Of a stretch of 64,000 nt of DNA, positions 60,808 through 62,064 are shown in pieces; the first letter of the stretch is position 1; each line of letters begins with the position of its first letter. The stretch comes from Patescibacteria group bacterium (GTDB lineage Bacteria; Patescibacteriota; Patescibacteriia; Veblenbacterales; UBA10138), in contig JBDRTU010000026.1 in assembly GCA_043823825.1 (NCBI GenBank), positions 43 to 64,042 on the forward strand, written 5' to 3'. Under the pieces are notes generated by a model. It was not told the origin of the DNA, did not search any database, and saw only the letters and a list, made by a program, of their open reading frames with translations. Position numbers and translations under genes: made by a program.

Positions 60808-62064
60808 TTAGATCGTTGGATTAACAACTCTGCCCAAAAATAGGATATTTCCCGTGTCTTTTTCTTGAATTATAAATATAAATGGATGGTCTGCCCTAAA
60901 GACATTTCTCGGCATAGCACTTCTTACCATCCCCACAGCAGTTGCAGCAGCTGCCTCTGTTCCTTTCTCATCAACTTTAATATATGCTTGATGAATTACA
61001 AAATCAATCCAAATTTTTTCTGCTGTAGTCATTCCAGAAAAATCAGCATTTGCTGAAAAAGCTGTTGGCATTCCTAACGCACCCAAAGTTTCATTCATGA
61101 AATATTTAGTATCAAAATCAAATTTAGGAAGTGATATTGAATCCAATTTGGTTTCTTTCATCTGAGACTTGTATTCATTAAGTTTTTCTGCTGTGAGATT
61201 AGACCCTATTGTATCAAGATTATTAGTTGGTAATAATACCAGCATTGAAATTTCATCACCTTTGTATGGTAATTCCAAAATTTGTAAATCTTCTGTATCG
61301 GAATAGTTAAACCTCGCCTTATCTGGATTCATATTCATCATGGCGGTTTTTACAATATTATCAGGAGTTATCTTAAAATCTCCTTCGCGAGTATCAGCCT
61401 TATCAAATTCCCATTCCCAAATCCCTTTAAAATAAATTGCATTAGTTAAAACAAGTCTTGTCATCGCATTAAGAAATCCTGCAGGAATTAAATCTTTAAT
61501 CTTATTATTTGTTTGTTCTCCTATGAAGCTATTGATAGTCTGCCTTGATTTTTCAGTTTCTTTAACATAATCCAAATTTGCTGCTTTTCCACCATAATAT
61601 TTTTCAACCCTGCTTGTATAACCTTCGAGGAAAGGATAATCTTGTTGAACCCATAAAGCATTCCCGGTTCTAAATTCGTAATCCTTAGCTCCCTTGTTAA
61701 TTTTATTATAAATTGCAGCAAAATTTGATCTTAAAATATCACTTTCTGGGAAATGATAAACTGATTTCATTTCATCCGCTGTTTGTCCTTTTGCACCTTC
61801 ATAAGTCATTGCTAGAGCAGCAGAAATGCTATATGGAGAATAAAAAACATTTCCATTTTCAGACTTATTTAGTTCGGAATATAAATCAAAAGCAAATTTG
61901 TTATTTGCATTAGCTACGTCTTGTATTCCTTGCTGTGTCGAACCAGTATCATTTGCTGGAGGGGGTTGATTCGGCTGATATGGGAAAAGAAACAATACTG
62001 CTGCAGTTGCTACGCCTGCGAACAGAATAATCATCAACGAAATTAATAAAAATTTTTTGGTCAT
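60808..62064 (-). CDS. Serpin-family serine protease inhibitor with an N-terminal membrane anchor or signal
   Basis: N-terminal hydrophobic helix. Serpin core motifs [22 protein letters not shown], and the C-terminal [28 protein letters not shown], which includes the reactive-centre-loop hinge and s5B signature. Confidence 0.85.
   Translation of the reverse strand: [418 protein letters not shown]

Follow-up and report, generated by a model that had tools for sequence, protein, structure and literature searches.

What serpins do in prokaryotes is poorly understood. Spence et al. 2021 (PMC8233489) noted that no common niche or lifestyle accounts for which prokaryotes retain them. In that study, the prokaryotic 'hub' serpins are highly similar to clade B, Group S mixes archaeal and bacterial sequences, and for 'hub-like' members an intracellular housekeeping role, the inhibition of endogenous proteases, is hypothesised; the candidate phyla radiation (CPR) and the DPANN lineages are not mentioned there. 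Among characterised prokaryotic serpins, the closest to the protein described here is chloropin of Chlorobium limicola (PDB 8GXV), which inhibits thrombin and KLK7 and whose P1-P1' pair, Arg383-Ser384 in the loop AVVMQLR|SAMP, was located by mass spectrometry of the released peptide (PMC10090351). Another bacterial inhibitory serpin of the cell envelope, miropin, comes from the human oral pathogen Tannerella forsythia (Bacteroidota) and targets host proteases. Here we describe a serpin gene found in a stretch of 64,000 nucleotides (hereafter the window) of contig JBDRTU010000026.1 from a Patescibacteria group bacterium, together with the clade of related serpins to which it belongs.

The encoded protein matches chloropin with E=1.4e-77 and 39% identity over the serpin domain. 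The two have an identical hinge and the same R-S-A-M-P motif, and an N-terminal signal would export both. Relative to chloropin, the window protein lacks one residue at P3/P2, is shorter by two residues on the primed side and has a putative 23-residue anchor followed by a Pro/Gln-rich stalk, whereas a cleavable signal peptide was reported for chloropin; our protein also belongs to a CPR bacterium and to a clade shared with DPANN archaea. The human serpins SERPINB3/B4 (SCCA1/2) and SERPINB1 (leukocyte elastase inhibitor, LEI) give the best matches in PDB sequences, with E about 1e-80 to 1e-78, and have a similar compact core without long extensions, but these clade B proteins are intracellular and devoid of a signal peptide, in contrast to the export/anchor segment found here, and their loops and targets are unrelated. 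Miropin, although its cleaved form is among the fold matches, lies outside the CPR/DPANN clade and is more distant in sequence, being absent from the best 60 of 209 PDB matches. The archaeal Tk-serpin and Pnserpin and the 'hub-like' serpins are likewise prokaryotic inhibitory proteins with consensus hinges; in contrast to the intracellular role hypothesised for that group, members of the present clade have an anchor or a lipobox at the N-terminus and a loop that is hypervariable.

Collectively, the data are best accommodated by a Sec-exported inhibitory serpin, most likely held by an uncleaved anchor, that would trap variable foreign proteases at the cell surface; we give this reading a probability of roughly 0.65. 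The MTKK sequence and the 23-residue hydrophobic helix would direct export by Sec, and the uncleaved signal-anchor would keep the serpin domain outside on a 25-residue Pro/Gln-rich stalk. A protease attacking the exposed reactive-centre loop near Arg381-Ser382 would then form an acyl-enzyme, the small-residue hinge GTEAAAA would allow the loop to insert into beta-sheet A, and this insertion would drag the covalently attached enzyme along and inactivate it at the cell surface, as in the canonical suicide-substrate mechanism. The targets would be foreign and variable, namely host or community proteases and not one fixed endogenous enzyme, which fits the rapid diversification of the bait loop in the clade.

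Membership in the serpin superfamily (PF00079 / MEROPS I4), proposed in an earlier note on this DNA, is confirmed. Residues 53-416 align with positions 2-370 of the 370-residue Pfam profile PF00079 (E=2.3e-115, 386 bits against a cutoff of 27), and the PDB search retrieved 209 distinct serpin sequences, far beyond chance, with SERPINB3 (2zv6, E=8.6e-81) at the top and SERPINB1 and the bacterial 8GXV also among the leading matches; no match was found in NCBIfam. The open reading frame (ORF), from its ATG to a stop codon at 60808-60810, has exactly the bounds given in the earlier note, and lies on the minus strand, which that note did not state. The C-terminal signature quoted there was recovered at residues 389-416, and a PROSITE-type serpin pattern around F-x-A-D-H-P-F, applied as a regular expression, fits residues 389-399, of which F389, A391, H393, P394 and F395 are invariant among 48 homologs. 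An identical protein is already present at NCBI (P0001) under the name 'MAG: serpin family protein [Patescibacteria group bacterium]'; this annotation is correct, the family is well known, and at this basic level the gene is thus not new. The earlier note had mentioned neither this record nor the large CPR/DPANN clade. The origin of the window from a metagenome-assembled genome (MAG) of Patescibacteria/CPR agrees with the small, host-associated genome supposed earlier.

The determinants of inhibition are all retained. Landmarks were read from an alignment to alpha-1-antitrypsin (A1AT), whose reference sequence was checked by its length and ten landmark residues. The hinge runs from P17 Glu366 through P16 Lys, P15 Gly368, P14 Thr369 and P13 Glu to four alanines at P12-P9 (Ala371-374). 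The shutter, breach and salt-bridge residues S53, S56, N186, W194, K290 and H334 of A1AT correspond to S76, S79, N208, W216, K314 and H358, all identical. Residues incompatible with loop insertion, which according to the earlier note would have pointed to a non-inhibitory protein, were not found. P17-P8 is near-invariant among 183 clade sequences, and a proline or a charged residue occurs at P12-P9 in none of them. An AlphaFold2 (AF2) model reproduced the serpin fold (mean pLDDT 70, pTM 0.68, shallow alignment), with Foldseek E values against solved serpins down to 9e-34. In this model, residues 368-381 form a beta-strand beside s5A in sheet A, in the place of strand 4, and the best structural matches are latent antithrombin and the cleaved forms of LEI, MENT, antichymotrypsin and miropin; thus the loop sequence appears compatible with insertion into sheet A, which has no bearing on the native state. 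The consensus hinge and the six conserved positions support the inhibitory function expected in the earlier note, and we consider the protein likely to be an inhibitory-type serpin.

The N-terminus has the organization of a type II signal-anchor, with one N-terminal hydrophobic helix of at least about 20 residues and the positive charge on the cytoplasmic side. Residues 5-27 are uncharged and form an uninterrupted hydrophobic stretch (mean Kyte-Doolittle 2.74), which AF2 models as a helix at residues 2-26, and the preceding K3 and K4 are conserved in at least 90% of the 48 homologs. After the helix comes P-Y-Q-P-N-Q-P-P, the start of a 25-residue linker with acidic but no basic residues; low pLDDT at residues 23-51 is consistent with its flexibility. 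In the clade, the motif P-Y-[QE]-P-x-Q-P-P is nearly universal, the lengths of 23 and 25 residues are kept exactly in 139 of the 180 members without a lipobox, and the second half of the helix and the motif are better conserved than its first half. The 11 more distant relatives (about 50-60% identity) carry lipobox-like sequences instead (LSGC, VSGC, LVGC). SecA and SecDF genes are present within the same window. Since the hydrophobic stretch, the motif, the linker, the AF2 helix and the lipobox-like relatives point together to extracytoplasmic tethering, the protein is most likely membrane-tethered in an N-in/C-out orientation, and its serpin domain is predicted outside the cell whether the segment is anchored or cleaved.

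The bait loop evolves in a way that sets it apart from the rest of the domain. Per-column entropy has two maxima, one in the first half of the anchor helix and a sharper one at residues 378-386; the preceding hinge is the most conserved region. In 40 independent close pairs, defined by a scaffold divergence of at most 12%, the distal loop is 24.1% divergent, compared with 4.6% for the rest of the domain and 3.3% for the hinge; the difference between loop and scaffold is 5.2-fold (Fisher p=6.5e-46), and no other 12-column window of the domain diverges as much. The same concentration is seen between alleles. P0048 and P0051, the same gene in two samples and in both beside the same nitroreductase gene, differ at 6 of 1266 nucleotides, four of which change three codons inside the 12-codon loop (binomial p=9e-6). 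All three changes are nonsynonymous (P3 Arg to Lys, P2' Leu to Val and P3' Val to Ala), whereas the 410 codons outside the loop contain one synonymous and one nonsynonymous change. Similarly, P0044 and P0045 differ by a single nucleotide of 1302, which converts P3 Lys to Glu. Nonsynonymous change concentrated in the loop has classically been taken as a mark of positive selection on the reactive centres of metazoan serpins. It is also consistent with the protection against host or environmental proteases that the earlier note suggested.

Diversity-generating retroelements (DGRs), in which CPR and DPANN genomes are rich, do not vary loop length. Since these elements are so frequent there, we searched for a template repeat: no second copy of the loop-coding segment occurs in the 64-kb window, and across 76 loci the only strong one belongs to a tandem paralog (L065). 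Reverse transcriptase domains are likewise absent from the window ORFs of at least 150 aa. With neither component present and with a loop of variable length, DGR-driven diversification was rejected.

Aligning the loop to identify P1, as proposed in the earlier note, yielded two candidates on which the registers disagree. In the HMMER alignment, R381-S382-A-M-P falls onto R|SAMP of chloropin, with a one-residue gap N-terminal to the motif, and Arg381 would be P1. A strict count of 17 residues from P17 gives instead P4-P4' as M-V-R-S|A-M-P-R, with Arg381 as P2, Ser382 as P1 and Ala383 as P1'. Cleavage at Arg381|Ser382 therefore implies 16 residues from P17 to the bond and cleavage at Ser382|Ala383 implies 17. 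The distance from P17 to FxADHPF is 23 residues here, compared with a modal 24 and a clade range of 22-29. Serpins reportedly tolerate shortening of the loop by one residue. The two registers agree in 116 of 182 clade loops, where P1 is mostly Thr or Ser and less often Lys, Gly, Met or Leu, and the exact RSAMP motif occurs in the window protein only. We favour Arg381|Ser382 as the scissile bond at roughly even odds; this register would predict trypsin-like targets and that of Ser382 targets with a small pocket. Because P1 varies and RSAMP is confined to this one member, target specificity probably varies within the clade and is not readable from sequence. For such ambiguity there is a precedent in miropin, which is reported to use several peptide bonds in its loop (Ksiazek et al. 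2015).

Several points weigh against a surface-held inhibitor of foreign proteases. Most relatives have a loop longer by one residue, so that Arg381 as P1 would leave a 16-residue N-terminal loop, and Thr or Ser as the predicted P1 of most clade members is unusual and offers little guide to targets. The AF2 model is of moderate quality, given its pLDDT of 70 and shallow alignment, and serpins with a competent hinge may still act as substrates. The codon-level evidence comes from two allele pairs and is indicative, not conclusive; relaxed constraint, or else allelic recombination, might account for part of the fast evolution of the loop. Among window ORFs of at least 150 aa there is no S1 or S8 protease, and none recurs beside serpins at about 80 loci, so no target can be nominated. 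In addition, residues 19, 21 and 22 are each followed by an AXA-like site, and a Gly, which breaks helices, stands at -5 of the site after 21. These sites give cleavage by signal peptidase some plausibility, and the serpin might be a soluble inhibitor that is cut after Ala21 (ATA|A) from a cleavable Sec signal peptide and diffuses off the cell, much as the signal peptide reported for chloropin (PMC10090351) would suggest. We regard such release as possible but doubtful. The 23-residue stretch, found in 139/180 members, has the length of a transmembrane helix and is long for the core of a signal peptide, the residues past the putative cut are more conserved than this core, which is unusual for a mature N-terminus, and the lipobox-like signals of distant relatives would tether the protein too. 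Thus, of the surface anchor proposed in the earlier note, the conserved 23-residue helix after Lys-Lys stands, whereas the ATA|A site qualifies its retention.

The other alternatives concern the target and the activity itself. Control of the organism's own exported protease or proteases, that is, housekeeping and not defence, could be imagined from an S41 peptidase gene located 1.4 kb from the serpin; it is nevertheless unlikely, since a protease gene is conserved as neighbour in none of about 80 loci and the serpin gene moves between domains without any partner. A single endogenous target should, moreover, fix the bait loop, which is instead the fastest-evolving part and differs between near-identical alleles. 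S41 Ser-Lys peptidases are not known to be serpin targets. A cross-class inhibitor aimed mainly at papain-like cysteine proteases is a still more improbable case. It would be in line with the top PDB sequence match, SERPINB3, an inhibitor of cathepsins L, K and S, and with the commonest loop of the clade, where a hydrophobic P2 (Leu in 52 of 183) and a small P1 (Thr/Ser) are compatible with the S2-driven specificity of papain-like enzymes. However, the Arg-Ser of the window protein equals the serine-protease site of chloropin, and similarity to clade B is general among prokaryotic 'hub' serpins (PMC8233489) and hence uninformative on specificity. As for a non-inhibitory protein of serpin fold, for instance a binding or chaperone type, such serpins do exist (ovalbumin, maspin, HSP47), with nothing specific to suggest one here. 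They typically have hinge substitutions, either charged, bulky or Pro at P14-P9, while the present hinge is a perfect consensus, invariant across 183 sequences and followed by a rapidly changing loop. This combination makes sense only as a protease bait, and a non-inhibitory role is very unlikely.

The inhibitory surface serpin that we favour is a member of a clade spread over both prokaryotic domains. The best 120 protein matches listed have 74-86% identity and are labelled Patescibacteria, Shapirobacteria, Staskawiczbacteria and Woesearchaeota. Relatives were further located by shared peptide patterns, and a scan of GTDB species representatives yielded 80 loci, mostly with DPANN labels (Woesearchaeota, Pacearchaeota, Nanoarchaeota, Aenigmatarchaeota, Iainarchaeum and Altiarchaeia) and in a minority with CPR ones; a few more distant loci, with about 45-58% identity, have the labels Omnitrophota, Planctomycetota or Thermoplasmata, and one outlier with the label Ginsengibacter has only 29%. 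Close relatives (66-85% identity) reside in unrelated genomic contexts in CPR and DPANN alike. The archaeal contigs carry aRF1, aIF2-gamma, family B polymerase, FEN1, a RadA/B-type recombinase and RpoL (L016, L018, L023, L015) or a Rad51-type ATPase and NFACT (L003), and the bacterial ones DnaK/DnaJ/GreA/L9/L27 (L001), trigger factor/IF3/L20/L35 (L005), YceG (L009), RecG (L007) or IF-2 (L019). With archaeal marker genes on the same contigs, misbinning as the source of the archaeal labels was rejected for the contigs checked. Some 'binchicken'/SRP-derived TPA titles, such as 'Methanosarcinales', 'Gammaproteobacteria' and 'Candidatus Saccharibacteria' (L008, L013, L033, L038, L040, L042, L045 and others), look like unreliable placeholders; the locus L008 measures only 2.7 kb.

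Identity between archaeal and bacterial serpins (median 0.70, maximum 0.83) is indistinguishable from that within each domain (0.74 and 0.71). MurD is the one housekeeping protein that the window has in common with another serpin locus, L011; the two MurD proteins are 35% identical, while the serpins of these two loci are 78% identical, and neighbourhoods are wholly different even between close relatives. Since its close relatives occupy unrelated contexts in either domain, the gene appears to have crossed domains, and horizontal transfer across and within domains is well supported by these comparisons. A first neighbour-joining tree nested a CPR group in archaeal diversity, but on bootstrapping the backbone was star-like (support 1-25%), and no DPANN-to-CPR direction is claimed; only a 10-member CPR group including the window serpin reached 60%. 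Viral carriage was rejected as a cross-domain vector, as the same peptide patterns revealed no relative of the serpin in IMG/VR. Boundaries of a mobile element were also sought and rejected, the serpin being accompanied just by short AT-rich repeats, with no transposase or integrase. Serpin GC follows that of the host contig across loci (r=0.83, slope 0.65), therefore the genes are largely ameliorated. Within the window, the serpin has the third-lowest GC content at third codon positions (GC3) of 49 genes (z=-1.75) and the ArsR-family gene upstream of it the fifth-lowest, a weak and suggestive sign that both are of foreign origin.

Taken alone, the gene encodes an ordinary serpin, and its value comes from the context of the clade. 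We tentatively suggest, at less than even odds, that it marks a horizontally exchanged, surface-tethered anti-protease module of the ultrasmall CPR/DPANN episymbionts, with a bait loop under ongoing diversifying selection. If so, the clade would record an arms race of proteases and inhibitors between episymbionts and the microbes that host or neighbour them, and would represent a rare adaptive gene recently shared across domains. To the missing common lifestyle noted by Spence et al. it would supply a shared feature, since almost every member belongs to an ultrasmall lineage of one or the other domain, and these lineages are largely episymbiotic. Among open-access papers and preprints, we found none on serpins in CPR or DPANN lineages, and the cross-domain sharing, the universal membrane tethering and the rapid nonsynonymous change at P3-P3' appear to be undescribed. 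Should these serpins shield the exposed surface of episymbionts against proteases of the host or the community, they would offer a tractable handle on interactions between CPR/DPANN and their hosts; the natural loop variants would constitute a ready specificity panel, and the ectodomain is expected to be easy to express. Two serpins of the clade occur in the same genome in some cases, as a tandem pair in Woesearchaeota (L065, 6001-7323 and 7671-9056) and as L041 and L059 in one Nanoarchaeota MAG, and their differing bait loops suggest a paralog expansion toward different targets.

Table 1. Positions in the window of the serpin gene, its functional segments and nearby elements.
Feature	Coordinates	Strand	Basis or position
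Serpin coding sequence, 418 aa and stop	60808..62064	-	ORF list; Pfam PF00079; NCBI-identical protein
Positively charged n-region MTKK, residues 1-4, predicted cytoplasmic	62053..62064	-	Translation
23-residue hydrophobic segment, residues 5-27, putative signal-anchor or long signal peptide	61984..62052	-	Length conserved; AF2 helix
25-residue Pro/Gln-rich stalk, residues 28-52, opening with PYQPxQPP	61909..61983	-	Motif and fixed length in clade
Serpin domain, residues 53-416	60817..61908	-	Pfam envelope; AF2 model against solved serpins, TM 0.7-0.85
Hinge P17-P9 EKGTEAAAA, residues 366-374	60943..60969	-	Alignment to alpha-1-antitrypsin landmarks
Distal reactive-centre loop, residues 378-388, hypervariable bait	60901..60933	-	Entropy and divergence across clade
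Arg381-Ser382, candidate scissile bond	60919..60924	-	HMMER alignment to 8GXV; register count
Serpin signature, residues 389-399, s1C/s4B region	60868..60900	-	Regular expression, PROSITE-type pattern
ArsR-family helix-turn-helix (HTH) gene, directly upstream of serpin	62323..62589	-	Pfam HTH_20 and HTH_5; low GC3
Palindrome CATTCGCTCGAATG, arsR-serpin intergenic, tentative candidate operator	62300..62313		About 236 nt upstream of serpin ATG, 10 nt past arsR stop
Palindrome CATTCGAGCGAATG, tentative autoregulatory operator	62617..62630		Just upstream of TGcTATAAT box before arsR
Terminator-like hairpin downstream of serpin stop (tentative)	60701..60714	-	Consensus scan only

The window is clearly bacterial, in agreement with its Patescibacteria label, and contains a single serpin copy. 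Besides the Sec genes, it carries LepA, RecJ, the SUF system, an Fe/Mn superoxide dismutase and acetate kinase, the envelope genes MurJ, MurB, MurC/D-type ligases, MurG, MraY and FtsW, and a type IV pilus cluster with PilB, PilC, PilM/N/O and a pseudopilin. When the three neighbours on each side were clustered across about 80 loci, no recurrent family emerged and a conserved operon partner, either protease or regulator, was rejected; the largest neighbour family, the tRNA synthetases, occurs at 7 loci in varying positions. In five archaeal loci (L012, L027, L035, L053, L055) an HTH_20 protein of about 190-220 aa adjoins the serpin, and in L003/L012 a gene of this type overlaps it by 4 nt; this winged-helix regulator is unrelated to the ArsR-family protein of the window, of which no homolog was found beside serpins at the other loci.

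The ArsR-family gene is flanked by a 38-nt repeat (62286-62323 and 62603-62640) in which the two palindromes of Table 1 are embedded. Their form, CATTCG-NN-CGAATG, occurs twice in 64 kb against 0.09 expected, and two or more copies appeared in none of 100 shuffles. The palindromes resemble an operator pair, which hints that in this genome the ArsR-family regulator controls itself and possibly the serpin.

Several other observations concern genes elsewhere in the window. The S41 peptidase gene (58059-59354, plus strand, 431 aa) encodes an unusual fusion in which a hydrophobic segment at the N-terminus is followed by a DnaJ (J) domain (residues 157-216) and by a C-terminal-processing-type protease domain, Peptidase_S41 (233-404); such an S41/DnaJ fusion gene also adjoins the serpin on the Logan contig L086. 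Convergent with the serpin lies a FabH-like beta-ketoacyl-ACP synthase III (KAS III) gene at 59503-60672 (plus strand) with the N- and C-terminal ACP_syn_III domains, and no other fatty-acid synthesis genes were seen among window ORFs of at least 150 aa. In the SecD homolog (29586-31370, minus strand), the SecD_1st and P1-head subdomains are separated by an inserted PPIC-type rotamase (peptidyl-prolyl isomerase) domain at residues 181-268, which suggests a fusion of a foldase coupled to the translocon. At 39277-40699 (minus strand), a pyruvoyl-dependent arginine decarboxylase (PvlArgDC) gene beside an arginase-family, agmatinase-like gene forms a compact polyamine pathway, an arrangement associated with archaea. 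Near the start of the window, the gene at 123-623 (minus strand) encodes a protein with a SET domain (PF00856, E=3.6e-14). Three ORFs without Pfam or PHROGs match (17697-18401, minus strand; 34868-35482 and 38490-39023, both plus strand) are among the four of lowest GC3 (0.19-0.23, compared with a mean of 0.31) and may be other acquired genes. Finally, a 44-nt repeat with 84% identity between its copies (62755-62798 and 63729-63772), each a GC-rich hairpin CCCGCC-TTGG-GCGGG followed by AATTAATTACTGAATTT, flanks an unannotated 162-aa ORF (63045-63533) and may represent terminators or a small repetitive element.

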